64,000 nt of DNA, taken from sequence record NC_048731.1; one strand, 5' to 3'. Under the pieces are notes generated by a model, which worked only from the letters and a program-made list of their open reading frames with translations, was not told the DNA's origin and did no database searches. Every line of letters begins with the position of its first letter. Position 1 is the stretch's first letter. Both the position numbers and the translations under genes were made by a program. This document shows positions 48,165 through 64,000 of the stretch, piece after piece. This DNA comes from Escherichia phage fp01.

Positions 48165-48166
48165 AA

Positions 48167-48379
48167 ATGATCCGCAACGTTTCTCTTGCACGTTCGAAAG
48201 GCTTTAAGCTGGTGGATGCTAACACGTTCGAGCGTCTTGATTGTAAAATCGAATATGTAGCACGTAACAAAAATGCCTTTCGTGTTACCGAGAAAAAATT
48301 TGACAAGCGCGGCAACGTGATCGCTGAAACGGTTAAACACTTTGCCACCTTTTACGCTGCGTTTCGTGGGGTGTTATAA
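48167..48379 (+). CDS. hypothetical basic protein (70 aa)
   Basis: 'AAGGAG' RBS; coupled to neighbours. Confidence 0.45.
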   Translation: MIRNVSLARSKGFKLVDANTFERLDCKIEYVARNKNAFRVTEKKFDKRGNVIAETVKHFATFYAAFRGVL

Positions 48380-48380
48380 A

Positions 48381-48725
48381 ATGGTTATTTATGAAGGCAA
48401 TCGTTTTGTTGCTAATTGCCGCCCGGCATTGTTAGCAAACTATTTAAATCAGCTTTCGCCAGCTTATAAGGGCGTTATTAATATTTATGAGGGCAAGGCA
48501 CATTATAAAATTAATGCGGTCGTTGCCCGTGAACTAGCATTTCAATTTTTGACCTTTGCATCTTGTGACGTTCAAGTTATGGGTGAAGCATTAATTGCGG
48601 AAAATGAAGAGGATTTTATTAATATTTTCCGCAAGGTATGCACCGAGCGCCTGATAATGAAAGGCGCGTATATTCAATCCACTGCGGATAGTATTGAAAC
48701 AGCGTTTCGAAAGGTGGCACAATGA
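48381..48725 (+). CDS. hypothetical protein (114 aa)
   Basis: ATG at 48381 directly after upstream stop. Confidence 0.5.
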   Translation: MVIYEGNRFVANCRPALLANYLNQLSPAYKGVINIYEGKAHYKINAVVARELAFQFLTFASCDVQVMGEALIAENEEDFINIFRKVCTERLIMKGAYIQSTADSIETAFRKVAQ

Positions 48726-48880
48726 AAAAGTTTTTAATAGCTGGCATGTTTCCTTTGTTGCCTTATGTAATTTGCTGGGCTTTATATGCTCATGGTGCTA
48801 GTGTTCCCGGTGTGGCTGCATTTGGTGTATCAGCGGGCTTTCTAGCCGGACTACTAGCAAGCGTATATTTACGCAAGTAA
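48722..48880 (+). CDS. small membrane protein (52 aa)
   Basis: 'MKKFLIAGMFPLLPYVICWALYAHGASVPGVAAFGVSAGFLAGLLASVYLRK'; ATGA overlap with previous gene. Confidence 0.4.
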   Translation: MKKFLIAGMFPLLPYVICWALYAHGASVPGVAAFGVSAGFLAGLLASVYLRK

Positions 48881-49094: not shown

Positions 49095-49133
49095 TAATCA
49101 CGGGGCGCAACTATCAGGAAGTGCCCCCAATTC

Positions 49134-49158
49134 TCAAATGAGAATGATTCTCATTTGA
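49134..49158. repeat. perfect 25-nt palindrome
   Basis: 'TCAAATGAGAAT-G-ATTCTCATTTGA'; motif 'AAATGAGAATGATTCT' recurs at ~49650 and ~49700. Confidence 0.85.
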
Positions 49159-49360
49159 CCGCGCCCGCGATGGTTAGCCTGCTAATGGTTAGGGTGTTAC
49201 GTGTCGCCTTGTGTGATCGTTAGCGAGCTAACTAATTTTCAAGCCTCCTCCAATTTTGCCCTTGTTTTAGTATCCCCACCAAAATTAAACGCGTTAGAAT
49301 GCGTTTGAGGGCGTTTTAGCGGTATATTAGAATTATTCACTGCGTAGGAATACTGTATAT

Positions 49361-49460
49361 TTATCCAGTAGGATAAGCTGTGGATAAGTCTGTTGATAAC
49401 GCTTCAAAACGGCTAGGATTTTGTCAAGTCAAATCGTGCTGTTGATAAGTCTGGGGATAA
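49361..49460. promoter_or_regulatory. cluster of DnaA-box-like 9-mers
   Basis: 'TGTGGATAA' (perfect complement of TTATCCACA) plus 'TGTTGATAA' x2, 'TGGGGATAA', 'TTATCCAGT' within ~100 bp. Confidence 0.6.
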
Positions 49461-49485
49461 CTTAAATAATAGTGTTTCTCACTTC

Positions 49486-49740
49486 CGTTCTTAAATGCGA
49501 ATCATTATCATTTGCATTCCACTTCCTGAATAAGAATCATTCCACTATCTAAACGATAATCATTCCACTTCCTGAATAATAATCATTCCACTATCTAAAT
49601 AAGAATCATTCCACTATCTAAACGATAATCATTCCACTTTTTAAATGAGATTGATTCTCATTCCACTTTCTAAATGCGAATTATTATCATTCGCATTCCG
49701 CTTTTTAAATGAGAATGATTCTTATTATCATTCGTATTTA
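49486..49740. repeat. tandem iteron-like ~23-bp repeats
   Basis: About 8 head-to-tail units of 'CATTCCACT(A/T)(T/C)CT(A/G)AA(T/C)(A/G)A(T/G)AAT' with variants. Confidence 0.8.
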
Positions 49741-49762
49741 GCGCAGAGCAATTGCTCTGCGC
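49741..49762. repeat. perfect 22-nt palindrome followed by T-run
   Basis: 'GCGCAGAGCA-ATT-GCTCTGCGC' then 'TTTTGTG'; could act as a terminator or protein site. Confidence 0.8.
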
Positions 49763-49765
49763 TTT

Positions 49766-50369
49766 TGTGCAAAACCGACATTGCTCCACGGGTGTTACGT
49801 GCGGGCGTATGTGCAAATCCGACAGGATTTTTGGTAGTGTGCAAATCCGACCCGAAAAATTTTTATAGTGTGCGAATCCGACAATGAATTTTTCCAAAAA
49901 CTCCAGCAATCCGATGCTGCGCATCAATCCTGTGGAATTAACTAGAATATGTGCAAATCCGACATGAGTTTATTTGTGCGAATCCGACAAGATTTTTGTG
50001 ACTTCGATTGGAGGGTGTGTGATTGTGTGGGTTTGGGGAGAAGTTGAGAGAGCGAGGGAAAATTAGGGGAGAAGCTAGAGAGGCGCATGTTTGGTGCGGG
50101 GGCACCCGATTTGCGGGGATTTTGGGGAAGAGTTGAGAAGATTTGGGTTAATTTGAGATTAGTGGAGATAAAGTAAAATTTTATTAGCTAAATGGGGCAA
50201 AATAGCTTGACAAGTGAAAATTCTTGTGGCTCTAAAAACTCAGGCAATCATGGGCCTTCGGCCCGAAATAATGCTGCCATTTTCAAGAGATTATGTGTCC
50301 ATGAAAACTTAGGCAATTGTGCAAATCCGACCATAAATTTCTAGAAACACAATGTGCAAATCCGACAGT
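49766..50369 (+). repeat. eight dispersed direct copies of a 14-nt motif
   Basis: 'GTGC(A/G)AA(A/T)CCGAC(A/C)' at ~49767, 49811, 49840, 49871, 49950, 49977, 50320, 50353, all on the same strand. Confidence 0.8.
50000..50200 (+). repeat. purine-rich G-tract region with 3 copies of 'GGGGAGAAG(T/C)TGAGAG'-like unit
   Basis: Strong G+A skew on plus strand; G-runs 'GGG','GGGG','GGGGG' spaced by short linkers. Confidence 0.7.
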
Positions 50370-50914
50370 AAAATCCAGAAATGTGTTTTCAAAAAATGTT
50401 GTCTAGAAATAACCGCCCTCCCCATAACCGCCCTGTATTAAACCGCCTAGTATATGTTCCTAGAAACTTAGGAGAACCGCCCACTAGAAGTGTGATATCT
50501 CGTGAGTATTTCGTGAGAACTCTGGAGTTTCTAGGAAAGTGTTGTGCCATCCTAGCAGATGAGCGGCAACAGGTGTATCATCTTGAATGTAAATTATGTG
50601 GTCAAAAGTTTTACTTTTATTTTAAATATAAGATCCCCCAGGGTTCTCATATAGAGCTTTGCCCCCGCCAGAAGGTCTCGTGATGTTTCTAGCAATTTAT
50701 ATTAAATTACTTATTAACTTGTCCTGTCGCTCCGTATCCTCCGCTACAAGTTAGTAATTTTAAATTACTGAACCACCACACCTTCTGTGTGGCAACTCTA
50801 AATGGTTAATTCTATTAACTCATAGAGTTATGATAACATACATTTAGCTATCTGTCAACGAGAGTTTGTATTTGAGTCTCGGTACAGGTATTGTGCACCG
50901 AGACTTGCAGGATC

Positions 50915-51799
50915 TTACAGTAACTCTTGGTATGCTTTTTGATACGCCTCAGTGTCCGTAGGTGTACCTTTTGCAATGGCTATTAATTCATCTGTAATCT
51001 GAATATTCGTATTATAACGTGAGTGGAACTCGTCAGGAATTTCTAGATACCTATTGATGAATGCTGCAGCAAGCGGTGAAGCTACACCCATTTCTAGAAC
51101 CCATCCAACATGGTTTTCAAATTTCAGATAAGGAGAATCAGATGGGATTGGTGGGGTTACATCAATTTTCTCTGGTTCTTTTTCTGGAAGCAACGGATTA
51201 TTATATAATGCTTCATCTGGAAGCACAGATTTACGCTCTTTAAATATATAAGTTTCTAGATCAGATGCTTTAGATCCTGAGTATACAGCAAAGATGCTAG
51301 CTTTACCTTGTGATGCTCTAACTGGTAGATAACTAGTAGGATAGCTTCTTAATGCATCATGGAATGGACTTCCTGAATATTTGTACGTATCCCCATAGAG
51401 ATCGTCAATATTCATTCGTTCATCTTCAAAAATGTGAAATGACTTAAATGGTGGAATGGTGAAGTATTCCATCTGTAATCCATAAACTAAGAAACGATGT
51501 GCATATGCACTGATTTTTAAGACTGTGAATGCTTTTTCACCTTCTTTATGGGCATTGCCCTTTGAAGTAACTGGGTAACGTTTACAAAACATCTCTACTA
51601 GACGTTTCTCATTAAGACTAAGGGTGGAGTACAGTCGTCCACTTAACCCTATAAGTGCATCGAACATAAATGCTAGTTTATCTTTTTCTTCTTGGGTTAG
51701 TTCAGGAAACGGAAGTACTTTAGCATTAGGAACACTATTATTCTCCTTTGCCTTTACTTTGCCAGCATTTTGTCTTAGTTTATCTTTAAAGTTATACAT
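50915..51799 (-). CDS. hypothetical early protein (294 aa)
   Basis: Long ORF, first gene of the minus-strand early block after the repeat region. Confidence 0.55.
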   Translation of the reverse strand: MYNFKDKLRQNAGKVKAKENNSVPNAKVLPFPELTQEEKDKLAFMFDALIGLSGRLYSTLSLNEKRLVEMFCKRYPVTSKGNAHKEGEKAFTVLKISAYAHRFLVYGLQMEYFTIPPFKSFHIFEDERMNIDDLYGDTYKYSGSPFHDALRSYPTSYLPVRASQGKASIFAVYSGSKASDLETYIFKERKSVLPDEALYNNPLLPEKEPEKIDVTPPIPSDSPYLKFENHVGWVLEMGVASPLAAAFINRYLEIPDEFHSRYNTNIQITDELIAIAKGTPTDTEAYQKAYQELL

Positions 51800-51877
51800 T
51801 ATTTATCTCTCATTTTTAAGGTCTGGATGACCTTCTTTTTATTTTAGAGCCTCCGTAGAGGCTCATGTATTAGAGGA

Positions 51878-52492
51878 TTAGCTACCTCTCTTATCCTCGT
51901 CGATAACAGCTCCCAACGCCTCCATAATAGCATCTTCTAAGCTTCCATGCTTACTAGGATTATTAAAATGAATAGTACAAACAGAACTCCTAGAAACTCC
52001 AGCATCCGCAGGTGCTACGCTTCGCATATCAGATTCAAAAGCTTCTTGAGTATGTTTCAGCTGTACAGAAGGGCCGTAGTCTTCACCAAACTTATATGAC
52101 TGCGTACTACTTACCACACCCCCACAAGGAACATTGTGCATATCCGACATTAATCTTTTATCGGAGTTATTCAGCATTGAGATTGTCCCTGACTGCCACG
52201 GATCTCTAATAGTCACTGGAGTACTGGGGCGATTCACCTCGGTCTTCACAAGTTTGTACCCTGCATCGATTAATGCGTTAATTAGATTATCAGCCGGGAT
52301 GCGAGCCTTGCCAAAAATCTTACGAGCATCTTCGAGCTTATCCTCAAGATCTTTACATGCTCTAAGGTCATTGTGTGCAAATGTTAGCTTCATAGATTTG
52401 AATTGTACAGTAGCAGTTAAATCTTTAAAGCTATAATCCCATGTGTTCAGTTCATGATCTGGTACTACTTGAATAGGTTGTTGTGTAAACAT
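51878..52492 (-). CDS. hypothetical early protein (204 aa)
   Basis: ORF. Confidence 0.5.
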   Translation of the reverse strand: MFTQQPIQVVPDHELNTWDYSFKDLTATVQFKSMKLTFAHNDLRACKDLEDKLEDARKIFGKARIPADNLINALIDAGYKLVKTEVNRPSTPVTIRDPWQSGTISMLNNSDKRLMSDMHNVPCGGVVSSTQSYKFGEDYGPSVQLKHTQEAFESDMRSVAPADAGVSRSSVCTIHFNNPSKHGSLEDAIMEALGAVIDEDKRGS

Positions 52493-52677
52493 TATTTATT
52501 CTCCAGTTTGTCTAATAGCTTATGAGCTGCTAGATTATATTGTTCAAGTTCACGATTAAGGATTTGGTTTTCACACTTTAACTCTAGGTTCTCTTTATTA
52601 AGAAGATTGCTAATAAATAGAAGTGCTAGTATAATTAGCAAGGAACCTACGAGCATTAAAAGAAAAAGAGTTTCCAT
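52492..52677 (-). CDS. small membrane/coiled-coil protein (61 aa)
   Basis: N-terminal TM 'LFLLMLVGSLLIILALLFI' then coiled-coil-like tail. Confidence 0.4.
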   Translation of the reverse strand: METLFLLMLVGSLLIILALLFISNLLNKENLELKCENQILNRELEQYNLAAHKLLDKLENK

Positions 52678-53117
52678 TATTTTATCTCCATTCTTAACTT
52701 TGAAAACTTATTATACCAAACTATATGATTATCGTCAATTACAAATTTATGATAACATGCTGGTACGGTATAAGTTCCATAATCCGTGACACGCTGCACA
52801 ACCTTGTGTGCACACAGTCGACAACCATGCCCTTCTAAATGAGATCTAGCAGTTTGCCAGTAATAACCATCATGGTCCGGGCAATAGATCTCAACTTGCT
52901 GTTGCATTGTCTTATAATTTACACGCTCATACCCAAAGAAAGCTCCATGAGCTGCAACAGCTTTCTTGATAAATATAAGGTTTAATGCTTCTTGTTGAAA
53001 GTCGGGATGTAGCTGCTTAATCTTAGTTCTATTAATAGATCCATCCGATTTGATAAACCTATTTATTGGGAAGTTGTTAGCTTCCTCGATTAATAATTCA
53101 TTTACTTTTTCTCTCAT
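52677..53117 (-). CDS. hypothetical Cys/His-rich protein (147 aa from 'MREKVNE')
   Basis: 'CPDHDGYYW...HLEGHGCRLCAH' possible metal-binding motif; TAAtATG junction with upstream gene. Confidence 0.45.
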   Translation of the reverse strand: MREKVNELLIEEANNFPINRFIKSDGSINRTKIKQLHPDFQQEALNLIFIKKAVAAHGAFFGYERVNYKTMQQQVEIYCPDHDGYYWQTARSHLEGHGCRLCAHKVVQRVTDYGTYTVPACYHKFVIDDNHIVWYNKFSKLRMEIK

Positions 53118-53118
53118 A

Positions 53119-53343
53119 TTAGATATTCTCACAGCTAAGGTAGAAACATTCGTAAGCATCCCCAGTAAACTCTTTATCTTGTAATATACACTTAGCCTGG
53201 TCTTCTGGTACTCCAGCATCTAATAATTGTTGTTTACTTGGCTTTTCAGCGAATACCTTTACAAAATATTCACCATCCTGATTATACTCATTTATATCTC
53301 TAGTAAGGACATATACTTGCATTTGAAGTTCCTTGAAACACAA
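53119..53343 (-). CDS. hypothetical protein (74 aa)
   Basis: ORF. Confidence 0.4.
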   Translation of the reverse strand: MCFKELQMQVYVLTRDINEYNQDGEYFVKVFAEKPSKQQLLDAGVPEDQAKCILQDKEFTGDAYECFYLSCENI

Positions 53344-53376
53344 AAGGCCAGAACAATTAAGTCCTGGCCTCTAGAA

Positions 53377-53751
53377 TTAATGAAGTTGTTTACCACTTCT
53401 TAAAATAGTGGCCGTTTCCATAAGATTTAATGTTGTATCACGCTTTTTGATTTGTTTGTCGAGTTCATCGGTACGTTTGCCAATGTAAGCGTTAATAGCC
53501 ATATTCATAGCTGAGGCGAGATCTTCTTTGGTTATCTCTTCATCATCTAAAGCTAATTTAGCTAAAGAATCGAAAGTACTAGAAAGTCCTATAAGATCAG
53601 AAGCTTCCCCAGCCAAAATAGGATTTATATTATCTATTGTTACTTCTAACATAGAGTTAACAATATCTTCACCATCTATTAGACCAGATTCAATATTACT
53701 CTCCCACTCCTTCATCTGCTCCAGCAATGGATTTTTCTTTTCTGTCATGGT
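53377..53751 (-). CDS. hypothetical acidic protein (start uncertain)
   Basis: ORF; probable start at internal Met 'MTEKKNP'. Confidence 0.4.
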   Translation of the reverse strand, partial: TMTEKKNPLLEQMKEWESNIESGLIDGEDIVNSMLEVTIDNINPILAGEASDLIGLSSTFDSLAKLALDDEEITKEDLASAMNMAINAYIGKRTDELDKQIKKRDTTLNLMETATILRSGKQLH

Positions 53752-54157
53752 AAAGGTTTCCTGTGTCAGTTGGTAAGAAGGACGATTGAGCTTTAGGTGG
53801 ATGTTGTTTAGCAATCCAGTTAAGAATCAGCACACGACTAGGGACAATATCGGTATTATACCAGAAATCGTGAACCCATTGACGAGCATCCTCAAACTTA
53901 CCAAATTTATACGCTTTCTTAAACAATTCAAACCCAAAACAATCCGGCGTAAAGTCTACTTCACGATACTGAATTACTTTAGAACCCGTTAGATCTTGAA
54001 TTGCTGCATTAATTTCTGTATGGGAGAATTTTGTTTCGTGAAACTTATTAAAGAATCGGTAGTTGAAGCGTCCGTTCGTTTCGACAAATAACTGGATAAA
54101 GAGATCGTTAAATTGGTTATCAAACCAGTAATTCTGTAGTTGTTGTAGTGCTGTCAT
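53696..54157 (-). CDS. hypothetical protein (153 aa)
   Basis: ORF, aromatic-rich. Confidence 0.45.
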   Translation of the reverse strand: MTALQQLQNYWFDNQFNDLFIQLFVETNGRFNYRFFNKFHETKFSHTEINAAIQDLTGSKVIQYREVDFTPDCFGFELFKKAYKFGKFEDARQWVHDFWYNTDIVPSRVLILNWIAKQHPPKAQSSFLPTDTGNLYHDRKEKSIAGADEGVGE

Positions 54158-54354
54158 TTACGAACTCCGTTAATTGCCACGATGATGCCTTCGTACATAA
54201 AAGGAAGTAGTTCAGAAGTGTAGAAGATATTTTCCGTTATTCCTAGATGTCGAAAAAGTATATTAAATAATGCTGTTAGAAATACAATCTGAGGCAGTAA
54301 TACAAAATACTCAGTTACAATCTTTGGTGCCTGATAAACAAGACGTTTTATCAT
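54154..54354 (-). CDS. small membrane protein (66 aa)
   Basis: Hydrophobic core 'VLLPQIVFLTALFNILF'. Confidence 0.35.
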   Translation of the reverse strand: MIKRLVYQAPKIVTEYFVLLPQIVFLTALFNILFRHLGITENIFYTSELLPFMYEGIIVAINGVRK

Positions 54355-54453
54355 TGTTTTTAAGTCTCCTTATTACTTTGGCCTGCTCCACAATAATAAA
54401 AACTGCAAGCACTAATAGTGCTATTAGCCCCGCAGTAATTGGTACTAAATCAA

Positions 54454-54780
54454 TCATGGGAGACGCCATACGTAATTAGCTGTCTGTAGAGTCTTAGCAG
54501 TATCATCATGGTACATTACTACAGACTTTGGTGAATAGCTATCAGCTAGTTCTTTACGAATCATTTCACACTCTTCACCAGTATCAATATTTTTAACTAT
54601 CACTTTCATATTAAGTGGTGTTAATACAGAAAGTGGTTTCCAAGAGTCCTCAATTTCAATTCCTACCTTTTTCTCGATTAACATGAGAACTTCTAGTGTA
54701 TCATCTGGAATACTAATATTATTATTCACAAACTGTAATATCTCATGTAAGGTATTTAATTCATTAAAATTAAGCTTCAT
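54454..54780 (-). CDS. hypothetical protein (108 aa)
   Basis: ORF. Confidence 0.45.
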   Translation of the reverse strand: MKLNFNELNTLHEILQFVNNNISIPDDTLEVLMLIEKKVGIEIEDSWKPLSVLTPLNMKVIVKNIDTGEECEMIRKELADSYSPKSVVMYHDDTAKTLQTANYVWRLP

Positions 54781-55015
54781 CTTTAAGAATATCCTCTACC
54801 ATATCACAAGACTGTTGCAATTCATCCGCAATTCGTTTAATATCAGTTTTTGTTATTTTACCAATTAACATCACCAGTAACATAGAAAAGATAATAAGTG
54901 GGACTGGAATAACAAATAAAGCTACCTTAGCTACATTCTTTGGCGTCCATGTGTGGTACTTAGTAACCAGTACACCAACCACAATTAGATAAAACGCTAG
55001 AATAAACATCATCAT
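54770..55015 (-). CDS. small membrane protein (81 aa)
   Basis: Two hydrophobic helices. Confidence 0.4.
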   Translation of the reverse strand: MMMFILAFYLIVVGVLVTKYHTWTPKNVAKVALFVIPVPLIIFSMLLVMLIGKITKTDIKRIADELQQSCDMVEDILKDEA

Positions 55016-55293
55016 TTTTTAATCTCCGTAATTATCTGTGCACGCATTACTTTATTAGGTAGTTTTGTATTCCCAGCAATTGCTTCGATATTGTTTAGTT
55101 TTTCTTTTAGAATATCTGAGCGTCTCTGAGCTAGTTCAATATCTTGTTCTTGTTCTATTAAGCGGCAGTGAAGTCCACTATTAGTAGTAAGCATACTCTC
55201 TATATTTTTTCGCATGCTTACAATACCAATAATCCCCCCAATCGCTGCTAGTGTCATAAGAACTAGCAATCCAATGAGAATTTCTATAATCAT
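55012..55293 (-). CDS. membrane-anchored coiled-coil protein (93 aa)
   Basis: N-terminal TM 'IIEILIGLLVLMTLAAIGGIIGIV'. Confidence 0.4.
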   Translation of the reverse strand: MIIEILIGLLVLMTLAAIGGIIGIVSMRKNIESMLTTNSGLHCRLIEQEQDIELAQRRSDILKEKLNNIEAIAGNTKLPNKVMRAQIITEIKK

Positions 55294-55826
55294 TTATTTA
55301 ATTCCTCTAAAGTAGGTAATGGTTTTGTATGATCAAAAGTTTCTATAACAGCGGTAGGCCCATGTAGTTCTAAACGTAGTTCATTAGCTCTTTGAACTGC
55401 CAACTCTAAATCTAGGTATCTAAAGTAACCTCCGTGTACTGTAATACTTTCGGCGCTTCTGACCTGGACTCTCCATTGTTGTCGATCTTTTTTCCAGGTA
55501 ATTCCTAAGTACCCCGAATTAGATTGAGCGATTTTGCTACGATTATTCTCTTGGGACGTACAATCTTTTAAATTACACCACCTATTATCTTTTCTTATAT
55601 TATTTAAGTGGTGTACTAGATTTGGAATATACCCCTCCATGTACAAAAAGGCTAATCTATGGGCTGCGTATCTTTTTCTATTTATTCCAATAAATATATA
55701 ACCATCCTTATCAGGACTACCAGCAATACTACCTGCTTTACCTCGTCCTCTACTGACTTTCCTTATAAACTCGCCCGTTTCCGGGTGGTATTCAAATAAC
55801 TCTTTTAATCTTTCTTGTGTTAGCAT
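55290..55826 (-). CDS. HNH homing endonuclease with AP2-like DNA-binding segment
   Basis: 'VHHLNNIRKDNRWCNL' HNH motif; 'GYLGITWKKDRQQWRVQV' AP2-like. Confidence 0.6.
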   Translation of the reverse strand: MLTQERLKELFEYHPETGEFIRKVSRGRGKAGSIAGSPDKDGYIFIGINRKRYAAHRLAFLYMEGYIPNLVHHLNNIRKDNRWCNLKDCTSQENNRSKIAQSNSGYLGITWKKDRQQWRVQVRSAESITVHGGYFRYLDLELAVQRANELRLELHGPTAVIETFDHTKPLPTLEELNK

Positions 55827-56089
55827 TTTTTCTTTAATTGCTTGACTTCACGCTCAAAGCTAGCTGCTCGGCGTTCTGCCACTGCTTGATGCTCCTTAGC
55901 AAAGCGTGTCTCTTGTTTTGCTAAGTTAAAGGCCATAGCGTTCTTGTTAAGAGAATCGTACATCTTCTTCATCGCCGGAATAGACATTTTCATCAGTTGC
56001 CCCTCAAATCCTTGCATGTCGAGGAGAATTGCCAGAACGTTAGCCATTTCATTTTTAGTCATGTTTTCCATTAGAATTTCCTCTCTCAT
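55820..56089 (-). CDS. hypothetical protein (89 aa)
   Basis: ORF downstream of a PN25-like promoter with 'GAGAGAGG' RBS. Confidence 0.45.
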   Translation of the reverse strand: MREEILMENMTKNEMANVLAILLDMQGFEGQLMKMSIPAMKKMYDSLNKNAMAFNLAKQETRFAKEHQAVAERRAASFEREVKQLKKKC

Positions 56090-56103
56090 TAATTTATGAA
56101 CTT

Positions 56104-56132
56104 ATTATACAGAATTTTAAGGCTTAAAGCAA
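56104..56132 (-). promoter_or_regulatory. sigma70 promoter closely resembling T5 PN25
   Basis: Minus-strand 'TTGCTT' + 17 nt ('TAAGCCTTAAAATTCTG') + 'TATAAT' + 'AAGTTCATAAATTAATGAGAGAGG'. Confidence 0.6.
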
Positions 56133-56149
56133 CTGAATTTTTTAATTAC

Positions 56150-56578
56150 TTACCAATCGTTAACAACGCCGGAGAACTCAGAAGCAAAAACTTTTTCAAA
56201 TTTCTCTGCAATTTCAGGATGATCTTTGCAGATCAGCTCAATACAGGCTTCTGGAGTCATTCCTTCATCTTCAGGATCACCGTAGTATTTGTCCCAGAGA
56301 TCATCAGGAATGATGCGTTCAGCTAGATCTTGGAAATAAACTGCCTGGTAACGTGGGGCTTCTTCAGCAAAGAGTTCTTCGATCTCTTCATCAGCCTCAC
56401 CTCTGTAATCTGCCATTAATAGGGCATCAGTTGCGTAACATTCCCAGACCATCAAACGTTCAGAGATAGGATTAGACTTATCTTGAACGTAAGACTGGAA
56501 CAAGGTTCGGAAAGTTGCCTTAACTTGTTCAAACTTATCTGCTGCTGCGAAAACTAGAGCTTTATCAACTTTGTTCAT
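56150..56578 (-). CDS. hypothetical acidic protein (142 aa)
   Basis: ORF with own promoter. Confidence 0.5.
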   Translation of the reverse strand: MNKVDKALVFAAADKFEQVKATFRTLFQSYVQDKSNPISERLMVWECYATDALLMADYRGEADEEIEELFAEEAPRYQAVYFQDLAERIIPDDLWDKYYGDPEDEGMTPEACIELICKDHPEIAEKFEKVFASEFSGVVNDW

Positions 56579-56608
56579 TTTGATTCCTTCTCATCAATTT
56601 ATAAAGTA

Positions 56609-56637
56609 ATTATACAGAAACTTAAGCATTTTAGCAA
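56609..56637 (-). promoter_or_regulatory. sigma70 promoter (T5 early type)
   Basis: Minus-strand 'TTGCTA' + 17 nt + 'TATAAT' + 'TACTTTATAAATTGATGAGAAGG'. Confidence 0.55.
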
Positions 56638-56745
56638 ATAAAACTTTTAATTAAAATGCCTAATCCCGTGCCAATAGCAATACAAATGATTATAAGTATT
56701 GCTATCGCTTGTATGATTCGTTTAATAATAGCCTCGGTTATATAC

Positions 56746-57267
56746 TCAGACATTTAACATCCAGCTAGTTTTATCATGTGAAGTGTACTTACCACCCATG
56801 ATGTCTTCCAGGCGTACTGGTGATTTTGCATACTCGACACAAACATTAATATAACGAGGGTCTCCCATTAGCTCAAAGTGAGTATGCCCATGTAAGTTCT
56901 TTTTACCTCTCAGTTCCCCAGGGTGTATTGGAGCATGGGAAAGCCAGAAGTTTTTATACTTAACTAGTGATTGTACGTTATCTACAACCCCTATTAAGTC
57001 TTTGAAAGATAATCCTTCTCGTTCTAAGTCGTGGTTTCCCAAAACTAACGTAGTTCTAACATTGCCAAATAGTTTTTCGAACTTCTCCAAACCATTTCTA
57101 GATACAAATGCGTCTCCTAAAATATAGAATACTGTACGCTTATCTTTCATGGATGTAATAGTATCCATAATAAATTCATCATGCTCTTCCATAGTAGAGA
57201 AGATTGGTCTGAATTTAGTAATATTTGTATGCCCCAAGTGGAGATCACTCCAAAAGCGAACTTTCAT
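56746..57267 (-). CDS. calcineurin-like metallophosphoesterase (173 aa)
   Basis: 'SDLHLGH', 'GDAF', 'GNHD', 'HGHTH' motifs. Confidence 0.65.
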   Translation of the reverse strand: MKVRFWSDLHLGHTNITKFRPIFSTMEEHDEFIMDTITSMKDKRTVFYILGDAFVSRNGLEKFEKLFGNVRTTLVLGNHDLEREGLSFKDLIGVVDNVQSLVKYKNFWLSHAPIHPGELRGKKNLHGHTHFELMGDPRYINVCVEYAKSPVRLEDIMGGKYTSHDKTSWMLNV

Positions 57268-58130
57268 TAAAGAATCCTCTGTACACCGCAGCTATTATTT
57301 TTGTCTGTGGTAAATGTGGTGATTTTGCCAGTTTCATCGTTAACTTGCGCAACCGTCAACTGCCCGTTGAAAACACCGCCAGTATCCAGATAAACACGGT
57401 TTTTATAAAGAAGTGGGTAAGGAACTCCAGTGTGTCCGTGGAACACAAAATCTACCCCCTTAACTTCTGGCACTACGTTTATTAGTTCCACCGGCATCCC
57501 GGCATACCTTTTAAAGTATGGGTGATTTGCATCCTCAGACATATGGGAAAATACATCTTGAATAATATCACGATCCCATAGGCAAGCATCCATAAGACCT
57601 CCTAACCCATGATCTGTAGCATGTTCTAGTTGTACTACTAGATTGTCCCAATTAGGGATTTTTACTTCATCGCCACATTCTTTGTATTCAATTGGTACTG
57701 CGGCATGTGCTACACCATATTTTTTCCCTCTATGTAGTACAGTCATAAGTAGGGGCATTTTTTCAGCCATATCTTCGGCAATATTTTTAATGGTGTCTGC
57801 ATCTAGTTCATTCATAGCCCACATACCACCATTATACATCCAATTAGCCCAATCTCCTACAATCATAAATTGGTCATGATTACCACGTACACTGATAAAA
57901 CGTGGATTATACAGGAATTTGGCTAAAACTTGTAGGTTTTGTGTGCCTCGGTCTATTAAGTCTCCGACACATACTACGCAATCTTTTTTGCTATTATACC
58001 CAGCTAATTTCAACGCATCTTCTAGCAAATCATTGCATCCATGAATATCACCAACGAAAAACAAGTTGGCGTCATCCGGCACTACTAGAGTTTTATGTAC
58101 ATTAAATTCTTTTTTCATAATTATTCCCAA
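57267..58130 (-). CDS. serine/threonine protein phosphatase (PPP family)
   Basis: 'GDIHGC', 'GDLIDRG', 'GNHD' signature triad; 'HGHT' later. Confidence 0.75.
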   Translation of the reverse strand: MGIIMKKEFNVHKTLVVPDDANLFFVGDIHGCNDLLEDALKLAGYNSKKDCVVCVGDLIDRGTQNLQVLAKFLYNPRFISVRGNHDQFMIVGDWANWMYNGGMWAMNELDADTIKNIAEDMAEKMPLLMTVLHRGKKYGVAHAAVPIEYKECGDEVKIPNWDNLVVQLEHATDHGLGGLMDACLWDRDIIQDVFSHMSEDANHPYFKRYAGMPVELINVVPEVKGVDFVFHGHTGVPYPLLYKNRVYLDTGGVFNGQLTVAQVNDETGKITTFTTDKNNSCGVQRIL

Positions 58131-58366
58131 ATAACAGTTAAAATAGTTGTGCCATAATCATTAGATAGTTGGAGAGTATAACCCTCTTTATAGAGGGCTT
58201 TTATAGCTTCATAACTAATTTCATCACGATTAAACTGTACAAAAGAACCTCCAATCTCCACAGAAGAAACTATTCTCTTTTTAACATACTTATACGTTTT
58301 CTTCTTGCTCTTAAGGAGTGCAGCTCTATTTATCCTGGCTAAACGTTTTGCTTGTTCCGCTAACAT
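58121..58366 (-). CDS. hypothetical protein (81 aa)
   Basis: ORF with PN25-type promoter and 'GGAGGA' RBS. Confidence 0.45.
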   Translation of the reverse strand: MLAEQAKRLARINRAALLKSKKKTYKYVKKRIVSSVEIGGSFVQFNRDEISYEAIKALYKEGYTLQLSNDYGTTILTVIWE

Positions 58367-58393
58367 TTAATCCTCCAATCAATTTATATAAGT

Positions 58394-58422
58394 ATTATAC
58401 CAAAATTTTTAGCAAAAAGCAA
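58394..58422 (-). promoter_or_regulatory. sigma70 promoter (T5 early type)
   Basis: Minus-strand 'TTGCTT' + 17 nt + 'TATAAT'. Confidence 0.5.
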
Positions 58423-58431
58423 GTAAAATAA

Positions 58432-58457
58432 AAGCCTGATCAGCTAAGATCAGGCTT
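58432..58457 (-). terminator. rho-independent terminator
   Basis: 'AAGCCTGATC-(loop)-GATCAGGCTT' then T-rich tract on the minus strand. Confidence 0.55.
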
Positions 58458-58463
58458 TGTTTA

Positions 58464-58754
58464 TTAGTCCTCTGGATTATCATCCAGGAAATTTTTAATA
58501 GCTTCGTGCATAGTTTCTTTACGAAGCTGACGTCCAATCAGAATATGATTAGCTTCTACTCGACCATTAGGTAAGCGATCCGCCAGAACCACTACAGGAA
58601 CTTGGCGCACTCCAAATTTCTGCATTAATTCTGTATTATCAGTCTCTTTATGGATTTCCAAATTATAGTCACTGACTACTTTATCAAATACTGGCTCAAA
58701 CATTTTGCAAGGATTGCAAGTGGAACCTTTCAATAGATATACTAATTTACTCAT
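58464..58754 (-). CDS. thioredoxin/glutaredoxin-like protein
   Basis: Active-site-like 'CNPC' near N-terminus in a ~96-aa protein. Confidence 0.55.
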   Translation of the reverse strand: MSKLVYLLKGSTCNPCKMFEPVFDKVVSDYNLEIHKETDNTELMQKFGVRQVPVVVLADRLPNGRVEANHILIGRQLRKETMHEAIKNFLDDNPED

Positions 58755-59178
58755 AGTTATTAATGGCCTCTAAGAAGTTTTTCATAGTTTTTACAGTTGC
58801 GGTGCTCAGATCAAGATTTACACCCAAACACTCGGTTAGTGCTTCCTGATAAGGAGCCTTTAATCTGCCTTCTGGGACTTCTACCTTCTTATATTCTTTA
58901 TTTTTGACCTTTTTAATCATAGTCTCTAGTACAAGAAGAGGTAATTTAGCACCTTCAATATCAGTACCCAAAAGTTCAGTTAAAATTTTATTAAGATCAA
59001 GACGAGTTAACTTTTTGCCCTTAGACATAGATGCACCTACCTTTGTATCAATAGATTTTTCCGCTTTCTTTTCGAGCTTTTTGTACTCAGGAGAGTCATG
59101 ATCACGGAGTGCAATGTTTAGCTCGTACTGTGGTATACGAAAATGTTCCGCCATTTGAGTATAGAAACGATCAGACAT
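58747..59178 (-). CDS. hypothetical protein (143 aa)
   Basis: ORF. Confidence 0.45.
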   Translation of the reverse strand: MSDRFYTQMAEHFRIPQYELNIALRDHDSPEYKKLEKKAEKSIDTKVGASMSKGKKLTRLDLNKILTELLGTDIEGAKLPLLVLETMIKKVKNKEYKKVEVPEGRLKAPYQEALTECLGVNLDLSTATVKTMKNFLEAINNYE

Positions 59179-59213
59179 AATATATACCTCTCTCTTAACT
59201 AATTTATGTATAT

Positions 59214-59242
59214 ATTATATAATAACTAGGGCTAAAAGTCAA
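59214..59242 (-). promoter_or_regulatory. sigma70 promoter (T5 early type)
   Basis: Minus-strand 'TTGACT' + 17 nt + 'TATAAT' + 'ATATACATAAATTAG'. Confidence 0.5.
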
Positions 59243-59255
59243 CTACTTTTTTATC

Positions 59256-59672
59256 TTAATCTACTGCATGGATAAATCTTTTCCTAACTAGATACATAGT
59301 TATTGGGTAAATTGAGTACATAAGTATCGGGGAGAAAAGGGTGAAATAAGCTGTAACTCCCCCAGCTAACATCAAAGGTATTAATGCTAGAGTAAGGGCC
59401 ATAAGAATCATGCCGAATGAAACAGCCAAAGCTATGGATATAGGATTCTCTAGTTCCATCCATAGCCAACAATATTTCGTATCTCTATGGCAATTGCATT
59501 TACAAACGCCGAATGAACCCATAATTATATACTCTAGTCCGTGAATAACCTTTATTAATAAGCTATTTCGGGTAGTTAATGCAAGGATAGTAAAGACTAT
59601 CATTAAAATGAATACTACTAGACTTATTTTCCAGATACCTAGCAGCATCATAGTGAATAGTTCTGCAAACAT
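59256..59672 (-). CDS. multi-pass membrane protein with 'CKCNCH' motif
   Basis: Four hydrophobic segments; located just downstream of endolysin. Confidence 0.45.
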   Translation of the reverse strand: MFAELFTMMLLGIWKISLVVFILMIVFTILALTTRNSLLIKVIHGLEYIIMGSFGVCKCNCHRDTKYCWLWMELENPISIALAVSFGMILMALTLALIPLMLAGGVTAYFTLFSPILMYSIYPITMYLVRKRFIHAVD

Positions 59673-59750
59673 GGCTTTCTCCTATCTTCAAAAAATTATT
59701 AAAGCCCCCTTTGCCTAAAAAGGCGGGAATATTCCCGCCTCAGTTATTAA

Positions 59751-60164
59751 TTAAACTAGTTCTACATGACCGCCATCATAGGTACCACGTTTTATTTCAT
59801 CGTGATAGTCTCCCGAAGCATTCCAATCAGCACCAAAACGAAGTTTAATGCCTAGTTCTTTACCTGCTTGTTCAAAAGCCTTTTTAACTGCCCAAAATGC
59901 TTCTAAGTCATTCCAATCAATCTTGCCATTAATGTATGGAGCAAAATCAAGAGCATCCCCAGTAATATGCTTGCTTTTACTAGGATCTTTTAAAAATGAA
60001 GTACCATTAGCAATATTCTGGGCACTTTGTGCTACTGTACGAATACCCTGTACGATCGTGAAATCATATGGAGATAATTCTAAAGCTCTACGAGCTACTT
60101 TTTGTAGCTCTGGCTTAACGGTAGCTAATTGTTTTTCGCTATTTTTACCAAATTTAAAACTCAT
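59751..60164 (-). CDS. lys: endolysin, L-alanyl-D-glutamate peptidase type (T5 Lys-like, 137 aa)
   Basis: Sequence 'MSFKFGKNSEKQLATVKPELQKV...' matches T5 endolysin as I recall it; coupled to holin gene. Confidence 0.8.
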   Translation of the reverse strand: MSFKFGKNSEKQLATVKPELQKVARRALELSPYDFTIVQGIRTVAQSAQNIANGTSFLKDPSKSKHITGDALDFAPYINGKIDWNDLEAFWAVKKAFEQAGKELGIKLRFGADWNASGDYHDEIKRGTYDGGHVELV

Positions 60165-60817
60165 ATTGATCTACCTAAAGATCTCTGTTGTGGGGAACAG
60201 AGCTTTGTTAAATACTCGTTAAATTTCTCAGAATCGGCTGCATCTACAGGATTATCTTTCCAAGCAATACCAATATATCCAGCATAGATATTGTTTAGAT
60301 TGAAATACGGACAAGTGTATATGTAATTAAAAGTAACGTTCTTAAACGCAGGTATATTTAACCCCATGTATTTATTTACTTTTACACTTAAATCCGATGC
60401 GTAGTTAAAGCCTTCCAAGTGACGTCTATATAGCTCAGACGTTTTATTTACCGCTTTATCGGCCAAGTCAGCCCTATCTAATTGCGCATTGCTTTCCCAT
60501 GCAATAATGTTAGAATAATCATTAATGGCATCGGGTTTATACTTGACGACAAAAACAGCATCCGCACCCGTTTGAGAAAAGAGTACCATGCTTTTTTCTC
60601 TAGCTACATTAGGAAAGTTATCTATCCTTTGAGTTTGAACATCCTGTAGAACCGCAGACGTGGAGAAAGTCTTTAAGAATGACATCACCTCGCTAGTATT
60701 ACTAACAAATAAGAAAATAATGACAGCAACTAAGATAGTTAGCAGACGTTTAAGAAGCGATGCTGGATCTTTCGCTTCTTGGAGCAGTACCGTTAATAAT
60801 TGTAAGAACTTTTCCAA
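60161..60817 (-). CDS. hol: holin, T4 T-type (single N-terminal TM, large periplasmic domain, 218 aa)
   Basis: One TM 'LLTILVAVIIFLFV' then ~170-aa soluble domain; directly upstream of endolysin. Confidence 0.7.
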   Translation of the reverse strand: MEKFLQLLTVLLQEAKDPASLLKRLLTILVAVIIFLFVSNTSEVMSFLKTFSTSAVLQDVQTQRIDNFPNVAREKSMVLFSQTGADAVFVVKYKPDAINDYSNIIAWESNAQLDRADLADKAVNKTSELYRRHLEGFNYASDLSVKVNKYMGLNIPAFKNVTFNYIYTCPYFNLNNIYAGYIGIAWKDNPVDAADSEKFNEYLTKLCSPQQRSLGRSI

Positions 60818-60973
60818 TTGTAACCTCCTCTAACCAGTACCATTATACTAATTTTGGAGGAAAATTACAATGTGTTTTTAAAGATCACTTCTGGAGCATA
60901 AAATTTTGTCGTTGTCAAGAAGAATTTTAGATAAAAGAAAAGCCAGGGTCGTTAAACCCTGGCTTAAAATTAC

Positions 60974-61573
60974 TTACTCTTCGTTATGCTCCTCGGATTG
61001 AGGTAACTGGGCTTTATTATATTGCTCAGATCGATATTTTGCCAAGATTTCAATACGCTTATGGATTTCTTTGCTATCTAGATAGATATTTTTGTTGTCT
61101 TTTACCATCTCGTCGATTTCATCTATTGAGAAGAACGGATAGTAGACATCTAGCATCATATCTTCTACGAACTTGTTGTAAGATTCATAGGCTTTCTTGA
61201 TTTCTTGACCTTTCTCACAGAATCCGCCAGAGAACGTGTGTCCCATTAGCGTAGCATGTGGATGTACTACCCACCCATGACAGGATAGGAAAATTGTGCA
61301 GTAAGCAGAAGCACTAGGACCAACCAGATGTCCTATAACTGTTCCACGGCAATTAGCAATTAAGTTAGATAACTGTGCAGCAGTATCAACATAACCACCA
61401 GGGCCATTAATCATCAGATTAATTTCGTCGTCCTCATTTGCTTGCATAAGTACCATTGATAAATCACGGTATTCATCCGGCGGGCCTAATTCTTCATCAA
61501 AGAAAAAGGTATACTCATTAGATTGGCGAATGGAGTGAAACAGGTTAGTCTTTTCTTCTTTTTTATTAGTCAT
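60974..61573 (-). CDS. ClpP-like serine protease
   Basis: 'INGPGGYV' and 'GHLVGPSASAYCTIFLSCHG' resemble ClpP active-site regions. Confidence 0.55.
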   Translation of the reverse strand: MTNKKEEKTNLFHSIRQSNEYTFFFDEELGPPDEYRDLSMVLMQANEDDEINLMINGPGGYVDTAAQLSNLIANCRGTVIGHLVGPSASAYCTIFLSCHGWVVHPHATLMGHTFSGGFCEKGQEIKKAYESYNKFVEDMMLDVYYPFFSIDEIDEMVKDNKNIYLDSKEIHKRIEILAKYRSEQYNKAQLPQSEEHNEE

Positions 61574-61585
61574 AGCGATCCTTGA

Positions 61586-62338
61586 TTATCCAACTAGTGG
61601 TTCTAGCTCTAAGTCACAGAAGTTATAAACTTCTAGTTTAAGGTTATTGATACCATCGAATTTATTAACTAATTCGTGAGTAATATATTTTGCAGGAATG
61701 CCACTTTCAGATGGATGATCTGATTTAATAGTGAACTTCTGCTCAGCGGGTACTACATTTACTATCAAAGAATCCATATCTAAATGGTTTGTTTCTCTGA
61801 GTAGCTCTCCTTCATTGGGGAATCTAACATCTGTTATTACGGCGACGTCTGGGTCGTCTTTAGCGATGGATTGCTCCAGAATTATGAGCCAAATGCGTTC
61901 ATGCACCAGCTGCCTTCCTAGCTCTGTTCCTACGAGCTGTAACATTTTTCTCGGAGAAATAAATAAGCTATAAAGACCGTCTTCTTTATTCTCTGAGATA
62001 AGTTGTTGAGGATTAAGATATTTTTCCTCAAAAATAGGCCAAACGTACGAGAAGTCTTCAAACTTATCGATACCGTACTTAAACCACACATCTCTGGCTC
62101 GCTCCAGTTGAGATTGTGTGACCGTAAACCATTGGTCAACCTCTTTCCCCCTGCGCTCTCCTAGAAACTCTGGAGTTACACCGAGGATTACGGATGCAAG
62201 TTCATAAACGGGCTTAGCAAAACTATAACGACGGGGTAAACACGTTGGATACGTGTCATTACACCAATCGATAATTAATTTTGCAACGGTATCTTTTCCC
62301 GAACCAGCTTCACCATGTAAACCGACTAATACTGACAT
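61586..62338 (-). CDS. dnk: deoxynucleoside monophosphate kinase
   Basis: P-loop 'GLHGEAGSGKDT'; 250 aa; matches T5 dNMP kinase in size and position. Confidence 0.65.
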   Translation of the reverse strand: MSVLVGLHGEAGSGKDTVAKLIIDWCNDTYPTCLPRRYSFAKPVYELASVILGVTPEFLGERRGKEVDQWFTVTQSQLERARDVWFKYGIDKFEDFSYVWPIFEEKYLNPQQLISENKEDGLYSLFISPRKMLQLVGTELGRQLVHERIWLIILEQSIAKDDPDVAVITDVRFPNEGELLRETNHLDMDSLIVNVVPAEQKFTIKSDHPSESGIPAKYITHELVNKFDGINNLKLEVYNFCDLELEPLVG

Positions 62339-62691
62339 TAATCTTTCCTATTGTTAATTGGTGGATAGTAAACTAAGCAACGTTTTTCTTGTAAATCTTG
62401 GCGATAGAAGCAAACCATACCAGTCAGTCGTGAAATGTAAGAGTAAACTGCTTCCTCACATTTTGCTTTTGCATTCCAATCTTTATATGGTACAACAACT
62501 ACTACGCCATCTTCTCCATTTGTAGCTAATTTCTTTTCAAACTTAAAGTCAAAGCTACAAGGTTGAAGTCCTTTAGGCCAGTCTACATGAGCTTGCTTTA
62601 ACTCATGAGATGGCTCTGGTTTTATTTCTTCTGCACAGCCTGTGATTGTGATTGCGGCTGCGAGCAGTATTCCAAGTTTCCAGTTAAACAC
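62338..62691 (-). CDS. lipoprotein (117 aa)
   Basis: Signal peptide with lipobox 'ITGC'; Cys-rich mature part; overlaps upstream gene by 70 nt. Confidence 0.55.
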   Translation of the reverse strand: MFNWKLGILLAAAITITGCAEEIKPEPSHELKQAHVDWPKGLQPCSFDFKFEKKLATNGEDGVVVVVPYKDWNAKAKCEEAVYSYISRLTGMVCFYRQDLQEKRCLVYYPPINNRKD

Positions 62692-63071
62692 GCTAATCTT
62701 TCCTCGAACTCTTTATTCTGCTTTTTAGCAATTAATGTTACCAACCCAGGCTTTGCAGCTATAATATCTTGGCGACTAAGTGCTTTATCTAACTGCTTGA
62801 TCTTTTTGTCTAGATCTGCTTGCGAAATATTATTCATTGTGAAATACTGATTCATTCTAGTCTCACGAAGTTCACTTTCAGCTTTCACCTTATTAAGCGA
62901 AGTCTCTAGAGAAGAGATCTTTTTAGTAGCTACTGCAAGATCACCTGCTAGAGTCTCAACCTTATTAACTAAGTGATAAGCACCGAATCCGATGCCTATC
63001 GCTAGACCTGCTCCCAGGATAAACCACTTACCGTGCCATATTCCTGAAAGAAGTTTTTGTATCAAATCCAT
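62622..63071 (-). CDS. membrane-anchored coiled-coil protein (i-spanin-like)
   Basis: N-terminal TM 'WFILGAGLAIGIGFGAY' followed by heptad-rich periplasmic region. Confidence 0.45.
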   Translation of the reverse strand: MDLIQKLLSGIWHGKWFILGAGLAIGIGFGAYHLVNKVETLAGDLAVATKKISSLETSLNKVKAESELRETRMNQYFTMNNISQADLDKKIKQLDKALSRQDIIAAKPGLVTLIAKKQNKEFEERLACLTGNLEYCSQPQSQSQAVQKK

Positions 63072-63726
63072 GCGCTGCTAACCTGTCTTTATCTGATACT
63101 TTAATCATATCAGGCTCACCAGTTCCTAGTACACCGAAGATATACTGTTCGAGAACTTGGTGTAAACGGTATAAGTTACTTTCAATTTCCTGCCACGGAA
63201 TACCTGACTGATGGAAACGAATGTTAGTCTGAATCACGAAGTTACGAACATCATCGTTATCGTTCTTCTTGATACCTTTCACATATGCAATCGGTACACG
63301 CAGTTCGGATAAGATACGTTCTGCTTTAGGTTTTGCTTCAACGAGCAAATCACGCATTGTTTCACGAACATCTCCACGACTCTTATCCATTAAGTAAGAG
63401 CGAGCATGCAATCCCATCTCTTCCATTTTATCGAACATAGTGTCGAGATTAAACGTTTTGAAGCTAAATGCTGGATGCCAGCAGTACAGCTCGTGTAACC
63501 AGTAAACTTCACCTGCAACAAATAGTGGATTCACAAAATATTCGAAATCACCACGGAAAGATAGCGAACCATCACGAAATACCTGGCGACTATGCACGAT
63601 GTTCTTTTCTGCATCATCAGTTACTTTAACCAGTAGCTCTTCGGTTTTACGCTCCCAAACACGATCTGCATCAAATAAACTGTTCTGCAAATCATATACG
63701 TCGGCGAATTTAGAAATGATCCTCAT
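63028..63726 (-). CDS. hypothetical protein (232 aa)
   Basis: ORF with PN25-type promoter upstream. Confidence 0.5.
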   Translation of the reverse strand: MRIISKFADVYDLQNSLFDADRVWERKTEELLVKVTDDAEKNIVHSRQVFRDGSLSFRGDFEYFVNPLFVAGEVYWLHELYCWHPAFSFKTFNLDTMFDKMEEMGLHARSYLMDKSRGDVRETMRDLLVEAKPKAERILSELRVPIAYVKGIKKNDNDDVRNFVIQTNIRFHQSGIPWQEIESNLYRLHQVLEQYIFGVLGTGEPDMIKVSDKDRLAAHGFDTKTSFRNMAR

Positions 63727-63757
63727 ATTTAATCCTCTTGCCTCAATCTATAAACAT

Positions 63758-63786
63758 ATTATACAAAAGTTTGGGCATCTAAGCAA
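63758..63786 (-). promoter_or_regulatory. sigma70 promoter (T5 early type)
   Basis: Minus-strand 'TTGCTT' + 17 nt + 'TATAAT' + 'ATGTTTATAGATTGAGG'. Confidence 0.5.
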
Positions 63787-64000
63787 CTAAAATTTTATTA
63801 TAAAAATAGCCCAGTCGCAAAAGTGCAGGCTGGGCTTTGTCATTATTTGCTTTTGCTAGTAAGCTGACTTAGTGTCAATCTTATGTAATATTAGTTTCTC
63901 TAGCTTTGCGTAGTACCCCTGCATTTCTCCACAATTTGATGTCAGCAACTGTTTCTTTATATGGAGCAATGGTAGAACCAATTGGGCCAGCAACTAATAG

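Follow-up and report, generated by a model that had tools for sequence, protein, structure and literature searches.

The PN25 promoter of phage T5 is a classic, very strong sigma-70 promoter and is used in the pQE vectors. In T5, all three gene classes are transcribed by the host RNA polymerase with sigma-70, several promoters have been confirmed via primer extension in infected cells, and the discriminator of early promoters has the consensus ATATT (Klimuk et al. 2020, PMC7472727). The N25 promoter combines TTGctt, a 17-bp spacer, TATAAT and a 6-bp discriminator with an UP element at about -49 and, within the spacer, another stretch of UP type; its AT-rich initial transcribed sequence allows rapid escape, and abortive products are few (Hsu and Han 2025, PMC12464699). 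For the T5-like phage AKFV33, the published consensus is TTGCTw, 17-18 bp, TATAATA, with AAAAATT at -43 and TAAATT at +1 (PMC3326045). Here, we analyzed a stretch of 64,000 nucleotides of Escherichia phage fp01 (record NC_048731.1), hereafter the window, in which an earlier note made from the letters alone had pointed to five PN25-like promoters driving minus-strand early genes. Very probably, these sites, called A, B, C, D and F below, are promoters of the early class in a phage of T5 type, recognised by unmodified host RNA polymerase with sigma-70.

An exact search for TTGMYW-N17-TATAAT recovered all five sites on the minus strand where the earlier note had placed them, at 56104-56132 (A), 56609-56637 (B), 58394-58422 (C), 59214-59242 (D) and 63758-63786 (F). 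Over the window this pattern occurs 8 times; dinucleotide-preserving shuffles predict 0.27 occurrences, and none of 100 shuffles reached 8. The AT-rich block and purine-rich ribosome binding site that had been described behind each site were also found at all five. ATAAATT is exact in A, B, C and D, exactly 6 nt past the -10 hexamer, and becomes ATAGATT in F (63745-63751); it is followed by a purine-rich Shine-Dalgarno tract (GAGAGAGGA, GAGAAGGA, GGAGGA, AAGAGAGAGG and AAGAGGA) and then by a start codon. TATAAT-N6-ATAAATT, with at most 1 mismatch, was found 10 times in the window for 0.77 expected, and the composite TTG-N20-TATAAT-N6-ATARATT 7 times, all five sites included, for 0.00 expected. 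An unbiased repeat search returned a dispersed 65-nt family that has A, B, C and F among its members.

Could such matches be chance pairs of sigma-70-like hexamers, functionless and favoured by AT-rich DNA? The window has about 61% A+T, and a generic sigma-70 -35/-10 scan gave 46 matches for 46.1 expected in shuffled sequence, that is, no enrichment. The evidence thus lies in the extended, fixed-register motif and not in the hexamers alone. Yet the excess of the composite motif is not accounted for by base composition, and all five sites are intergenic, on the coding strand, 21-29 nt ahead of a start codon. Because of the shuffling statistics and of the conservation in eight phages plus a distant one (see below), we consider chance refuted, and hardly conceivable as an explanation.

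The -35 hexamers of the five sites belong to the family TTGCTW, except in D, which deviates in the same way as its T5 orthologue. Spacer length (17 bp) and TATAAT are the same in all five, and the next base is A in four of them and T in B. An A/T-rich block lies near -43 in A (AAAAAATT), B (AAAAGTTTT), D (ATAAAAAAG) and F (ATAAAATTTT); at this position site C has a terminator T-tract, TTTTATTTT, instead of AAAAATT, and so does its T5 orthologue. No extended -10 element (TGn, with TG at -15/-14) was present at the five sites: A, B, C and F have a G directly against the hexamer (CTG- or TGG-TATAAT), D reads TTA-TATAAT, and the two sites listed by the sigma-70 scan, B and D, are both without TG one base upstream of the -10.

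Membership of the T5 family was quantified with a position weight matrix (PWM) of 72 positions, built from 23 annotated promoters of T5 26.7-66.5 kb, a part of the T5 genome without counterpart in the window. The training alignment shows AAAAATT near -43, TTGCTW, a GCTTAAA...TCTG spacer, TATAATA, an A/T-rich discriminator, ATAAATT and GAGAGG. Both strands of the window were scanned, and 30 first-order Markov (dinucleotide-frequency) randomisations served as null. Site A scored 64.2 bits, the maximum of the window, followed by B (50.7), C (48.3), F (45.4) and D (21.5), for a null maximum of -1.8. The other matches were orthologues of known T5 promoters, P31A at 5303 (+), P31B at 5404 (+) and Ppol at 823 (+), plus a site at 38366 (+).

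By alignment to the T5 record AY543070, from which the layout of the window was read, fp01 is a T5-like phage (Demerecviridae). The 8.2-kb promoter region is 96% identical to that of several T5-like phages of E. coli, Salmonella and Klebsiella, including AZ23 and PNJ1902, and matches 457 phage records. T5 has promoters at all five syntenic positions, ahead of the same downstream genes as in fp01, and these annotated promoter features are 68 to 75 out of 75 bases identical to the fp01 sites (Table 1). One of them is P-F30: the six bases annotated under this name in T5 are exactly the TATAAT orthologous to window 56609-56614. Differences are few. In site C, TTGCTTTTTGC of fp01 corresponds to TTGCTTTCAGC in T5, and ATAAATT to ATAGATT; a few substitutions are also found in D and F. 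Among the adjoining genes, hegF, which lies between the spanin genes and the T5.047 gene in T5, is missing from fp01, and an HNH gene downstream of the first gene behind promoter A is present in fp01 and not in T5. Together, the PWM scores and the T5 synteny bear out the earlier proposal that the sites are PN25-like members of the T5 early-promoter family, placed to drive minus-strand early genes. The family, its consensus and these positions were already in the public record, so that this is an ordinary finding.

We examined the conservation of these promoters by aligning six intergenic regions, those of the five sites and of the atypical promoter E described below, with their counterparts in T5, Shivani and NR01 (Tequintavirus) and in phiR201, EscoHU1, saus176N and bux (Epseptimavirus). 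All seven relatives preserve the architecture at the five syntenic positions, even though adjoining genes are sometimes replaced. Over the five sites, identity to the window was 96-100% in the -10 hexamer, 89-100% in +1 to +7 and 83-100% in the -35 hexamer, for 79-93% in the spacer and 65-98% in the discriminator. Site A is conserved in 8 phages; in saus176N the upstream sequence is unrelated, yet TTGCTA-N17-TATAAT-N6-ATAAATT is there. Site B is invariant in 8 phages from the -35 through the ribosome binding site, whereas the coding sequence just upstream has diverged. The promoter of site C is retained in most relatives even with a different gene downstream, both hexamers and +1 to +7 of site D are invariant in 8 phages, and site F is conserved in 7. 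The distant Klebsiella phage Riker, which aligns to 25% of a 3.6-kb query at about 64% nucleotide identity, has a family promoter in all five syntenic gaps (28-55 bits).

This pattern also bears on a second explanation, in which the units of 65-70 nt would first of all serve recombination, as a dispersed repeat or mobile cassette used, for example, in module exchange or homing-endonuclease insertion, and would look like promoters only secondarily. Sites A, B, C and F do form one dispersed repeat family; near-identity from -10 to +7 links unrelated loci (D with P31A/P31B, a site at 38343 with PN25); and HNH endonuclease genes and gene replacements adjoin the sites in relatives. However, conservation peaks in the hexamers and in +1 to +7, with lower values for spacer and discriminator; such a profile is that of a functional footprint, not the uniform identity of a repeat. 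Moreover, the register to the start codon is fixed, and PN25 and other family members are experimentally proven promoters. A role in recombination could coexist with promoter function and would not replace it; as the primary nature of these units, we hold it to be very improbable. Judged from the alignments, the conservation reflects selection acting on a functional element rather than a neutral repeat.

Sequence sharing among promoter cassettes was observed on its own account. A 19-nt stretch from -10 to +7, TATAATATATACATAAATT, is common to the P31A/P31B orthologues (5280-5321 and 5404-5422, plus strand) and to promoter D (59201-59219, minus strand), 54 kb apart. In T5, about 33 nt of the terminator-promoter cassette orthologous to C are nearly identical to the cassette after nrdD (T5 55708-55782). 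These shared stretches suggest duplication or gene conversion among promoter cassettes.

Returning to the five sites as early promoters, we propose that each is a cassette of about 70 nt composed, in order, of an A/T-rich UP-like block around -43, TTGCTW (TTGACT in D), a 17-bp A/T-rich spacer, TATAAT and a 6-bp A/T-rich discriminator. Transcription would start at the A of ATAAATT, where the 6-bp discriminator puts +1, so that the AT-rich block would be the first seven transcribed bases. Such an A/T-rich and purine-rich initial transcribed sequence would favour fast promoter escape, and it would lead directly into a strong Shine-Dalgarno sequence, giving predicted 5' leaders of 21-29 nt counted from this A. 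As members of the family, the sites would be recognised by the sigma-70 holoenzyme and transcribed early and strongly from the predicted starts; the 'very strong' of the earlier note likewise draws on family resemblance.

The family of five turned out to be real, and incomplete as a list of promoters in this region: a sixth, atypical one, promoter E, had been missed by the pattern used at first, because its -35 hexamer is TTGTAA. It has no ATAAATT block, and its discriminator, GGTACT, contains G+C. Its orthologue is an annotated T5 promoter (Table 1), and in 8 phages its -10 hexamer is invariant and its -35 hexamer 98% conserved. Promoter E is predicted to drive the holin and endolysin genes; the discriminator and the missing start block set this lysis operon apart from the five early-type sites and may reflect a different timing.

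The contrast with promoter E brings in a third explanation, which accepts the sites as promoters and holds that the discriminator, ATAAATT and spacer motif is mainly a recognition signal for a phage factor (gpT5.026 or D5) switching the early class off, rather than a determinant of intrinsic strength. Klimuk et al. (PMC7472727) report the discriminator as the main difference between early and late T5 promoters, and a weakening of polymerase contacts in the -5/+2 region by gpT5.026. In addition, promoter E has the layout of hexamers without this type of discriminator or the ATAAATT block, and the +1 to +7 block of the five sites is conserved as strongly as the -10 hexamer. No operator-like symmetry was seen in the promoter sites, though, and we regard this explanation as unlikely. 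A related idea, which we rate as distinctly unlikely, is that ATAAATT and the class-specific discriminator make up a class tag read after initiation. In one version, TAAATT, with 4 matches out of 6, would act as a -10-like element re-engaging sigma-70 for a promoter-proximal pause; no support for sigma-dependent pausing at N25 was found in PMC4005639, which uses the N25anti sequence only. In the other version, a phage factor such as gpT5.026 would selectively shut off the early units through the tag. The lysis promoter E, being devoid of the tag, would be spared.

Several observations weigh against reading the five sites as early promoters of separate transcription units. The PWM score of site D is much lower than the others, because of its TTGACT hexamer and its spacer. 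The discriminators of A (AAGTTC) and B (TACTTT) fit the ATATT consensus poorly. No terminator lies upstream of A, B and D, which therefore do not have to open units of their own. In fp01 itself the support comes from sequence comparison. Finally, the T5 annotation of the four unnamed orthologues may have been made by similarity; a literature search found no genome-wide T5 start-site map.

Table 1. Promoters, terminators, putative transcription units and T5-aligned segments in the window. T5 positions are those of AY543070; promoter identities were counted over -43 to +26. Units and genes driven are predictions.
Feature	Window position	Strand	Structure	T5 counterpart	Genes or extent
Promoter A	56091..56132	-	TTGCTT 56132-56127 / 17 / TATAAT 56109-56104 / AAGTTC / ATAAATT 56097-56091; predicted +1 56097	Promoter feature 16245-16319, upstream of T5.032; 75/75 identical	T5.032 homologue and downstream genes
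Promoter B	56596..56637	-	TTGCTA / 17 / TATAAT 56614-56609 / TACTTT / ATAAATT; predicted +1 56602	P-F30, 16779-16784, upstream of T5.033; 74/75 identical	T5.033 homologue (56150-56578)
Promoter C	58381..58422	-	TTGCTT / 17 / TATAAT 58399-58394 / ACTTAT / ATAAATT; predicted +1 58387	Promoter feature 18550-18624, upstream of T5.036; 68/75 identical	T5.036 homologue, two phosphatase/phosphoesterase genes, small open reading frame
Promoter D	59201..59242	-	TTGACT / 17 / TATAAT 59219-59214 / ATATAC / ATAAATT; predicted +1 59207	Promoter feature 19368-19442, upstream of T5.038; 73/75 identical	T5.038 homologue, thioredoxin
Promoter E (atypical)	60842..60870	-	TTGTAA / 17 / TATAAT / GGTACT; no ATAAATT block	Promoter feature 20998-21071, before holin gene; 67/75 identical	Holin (60161-60817), endolysin (59751-60164)
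Promoter F	63745..63786	-	TTGCTT / 17 / TATAAT 63763-63758 / ATGTTT / ATAGATT; predicted +1 63751	Promoter feature 24443-24517, also ATAGATT, upstream of T5.047; 71/75 identical	T5.047 homologue, spanins, dNMP kinase, ClpP-like protease
Rho-independent terminator before F	63801..63836	-	Hairpin 63836-63808 and U-tract; -15.3 kcal/mol, z = -3.4	24513-24546	
Rho-independent terminator after ClpP-like gene	60931..60965	-	Hairpin 60940-60965; -19.1 kcal/mol, z = -5.2	21114-21143	Ends unit F
Rho-independent terminator after endolysin	59715..59741	-	Hairpin 59720-59741; -17.9 kcal/mol, z = -2.2	19897-19919	Ends unit E
Rho-independent terminator after thioredoxin	58423..58458	-	Hairpin 58431-58458; -17.5 kcal/mol, z = -6.0	18607-18637	Ends unit D
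Putative unit F					T5.047 homologue, two spanin genes, dNMP kinase, ClpP-like protease; ~2.8 kb
Putative unit E					Holin, endolysin; ~1.1 kb
Putative unit D					T5.038 homologue, thioredoxin; ~0.8 kb
Putative unit C					T5.036 homologue, two phosphatase/phosphoesterase genes; no terminator, continues into B
Putative unit B					T5.033 homologue; ~0.5 kb, continues into A
Putative unit A					T5.032 homologue, HNH gene, more small genes; to terminator-like hairpin 53343-53372
Replication genes	6-9793			70213-80000	
Late genes (stretch tested)	33001-36597			104148-108464	
Pre-early genes	39378-48726			One terminal-repeat copy	
Left early region	49259-63997			Collinear with 9317-24707	

All genes of the left early region around the promoters are on the minus strand. 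Behind promoter A, the start codon was taken as 56071, as in T5.032, which gives a leader of 26 nt and leaves the first in-frame ATG, at 56089, unused. The -35 hexamer of promoter B overlaps the end of a small open reading frame (56631-56753). That of promoter C abuts the T-tract of the terminator hairpin 58431-58458. Promoter D matches the sigma-70 consensus at 11 of 12 positions.

T5 annotates terminators at all four positions syntenic with those of Table 1. The one before F is kept in relatives; about 14 nt separate the end of its U-tract from the -35 of promoter F. Compensatory stem changes were found in the ClpP-gene terminator (GGG/CCC to GAG/CTC in the Epseptimavirus relatives) and, in relatives, in the thioredoxin terminator, the T-tract of which continues into promoter C. 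With these four intrinsic terminators, the five promoters and the atypical holin promoter would divide the 8-kb minus-strand block into units of about 0.5 to 2.8 kb. The partition into short units that had been proposed therefore holds in part: C and F, and also the atypical E, are preceded by a rho-independent terminator, whereas A, B and D have none just upstream. The latter are probably internal promoters, adding to read-through transcription. Of the five sites, C alone adjoins its terminator directly. An Rfam scan of 55500-64000 returned no RNA family.

Several features of this block stand beside the promoters. The endolysin terminator and promoter D flank the T5.039 homologue (59256-59672, minus strand), which in T5 is a four-transmembrane protein. 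No family promoter belonging to this gene was recognised; either read-through of the terminator or an unrecognised promoter would be needed to express it. In the interval from the ClpP terminator to the holin promoter, at 60895-60930 (minus strand), a block CTAAAATTCTTCTTGACA-N12-TATGCT is nearly invariant in eight T5-like phages, and Klebsiella phage Riker keeps it as TTGACA-N12-TATGAT. Its 12-nt spacing is unfit for a sigma-70 promoter, and no -10 was found 16-18 nt downstream; the block may serve to regulate the lysis operon. Within putative unit A, an HNH homing-endonuclease-like open reading frame (55290-55826, minus strand) has no T5 counterpart at this position and shows 68% nucleotide identity to T5 hegJ, located elsewhere; in relatives, different HNH insertions adjoin promoters C, D and F. 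On the plus strand, TTGCTA-N17-TATAAT occurs at 52607-52635, within genes of the minus strand; the surrounding stretch has 88% identity to T5 12578-12700, and T5 has no promoter annotated there. The match may be due to chance or mark an antisense promoter.

Elsewhere in the window, the late genes run directly into a single copy of the terminal repeat with its pre-early genes (39378-48726), which is followed by the early region. This arrangement points to a source assembly in which the terminal repeat, of about 10 kb, was collapsed or circularly joined. Dense repeats were found at 49100-50400 and 52135-52159, including a 23-nt tandem array (49515-49675), seven copies of TGTGCAAATCCGACA and 29-nt repeats, and the DnaA-box-like GCTGTGGATAAG occurs at 49377 and 49438. 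In T5, the segment syntenic with this dense repeat region (9140-10149) is annotated as the injection stop signal region.

The analysis equips an otherwise unannotated T5-like genome with six promoters, four terminators and predicted start sites, and finds that phages as far apart as Tequintavirus and a distant Klebsiella phage hold the T5 early-promoter cassette at identical gene boundaries. Its importance lies mainly in annotation, and no new biology is implied; the natural variants of N25 relatives could nevertheless serve as a panel for expression-vector or promoter-escape work.

How close, then, are these sites to PN25 itself? PN25 lies at T5 63043-63117, upstream of D2, and reads TTGCTTTCAGGAAAATTTTTCTGTATAATAGATTCATAAATTTGAGAGAGGAG. 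Site A, which the earlier note held to be nearly identical to it in layout, does share this layout: TTGCTT, 17 nt, TATAAT, 6 nt, ATAAATT and GAGAGAGGA, with an A-tract near -43. The resemblance is looser at the level of sequence, with 49 of 75 positions identical ungapped and 61 of 82 gapped, and the leader of site A is 2 nt longer. The discriminators differ, AGATTC in N25, where Hsu and Han point out the G at -5, versus AAGTTC in site A, and it is the T5 promoter at 16245-16319 that is orthologous to site A. Moreover, the PN25 locus is outside the window, which begins at the equivalent of T5 70213. A search of T5 1-30 kb with the PN25 sequence, allowing up to 3 mismatches, gave no match, and the sites of the left early region are therefore not PN25. 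By these alignments, site A is a paralogue of PN25, not PN25 itself.

The plus-strand promoter at 38343-38384 was also considered as PN25 orthologue and rejected, as it stands at the position of the T5 llp promoter, ahead of a lipoprotein open reading frame, and as the PN25 locus is outside the window. From -10 to +7 it is identical to PN25 (TATAATAGATTCATAAATT). The open reading frame behind it, at the T5 llp position (38403-38669, 88 aa), starts with a lipoprotein signal peptide, MKKFVIALVAAVMLSGC. The segment 36597-38810 has no nucleotide similarity to the T5 module of receptor-binding protein and llp, so that fp01 probably uses a receptor other than that of T5.

Compared with the other promoter classes of T5, the five sites resemble the late and pre-early promoters PJ5, PG25, PH22 and PK28b in being of sigma-70 type with 17-bp spacers. 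These have TTGACA- or TTGATA-type -35 hexamers and are devoid of the ATAAATT start block, unlike the five sites, which, by this comparison, are outside the late and pre-early classes; the window itself has a PG25 orthologue at 21625-21653, on the minus strand. The match is with AKFV33, whose published consensus, derived from inspection and prediction (PMC3326045), is the motif of the five fp01 sites, ATAAATT block included.

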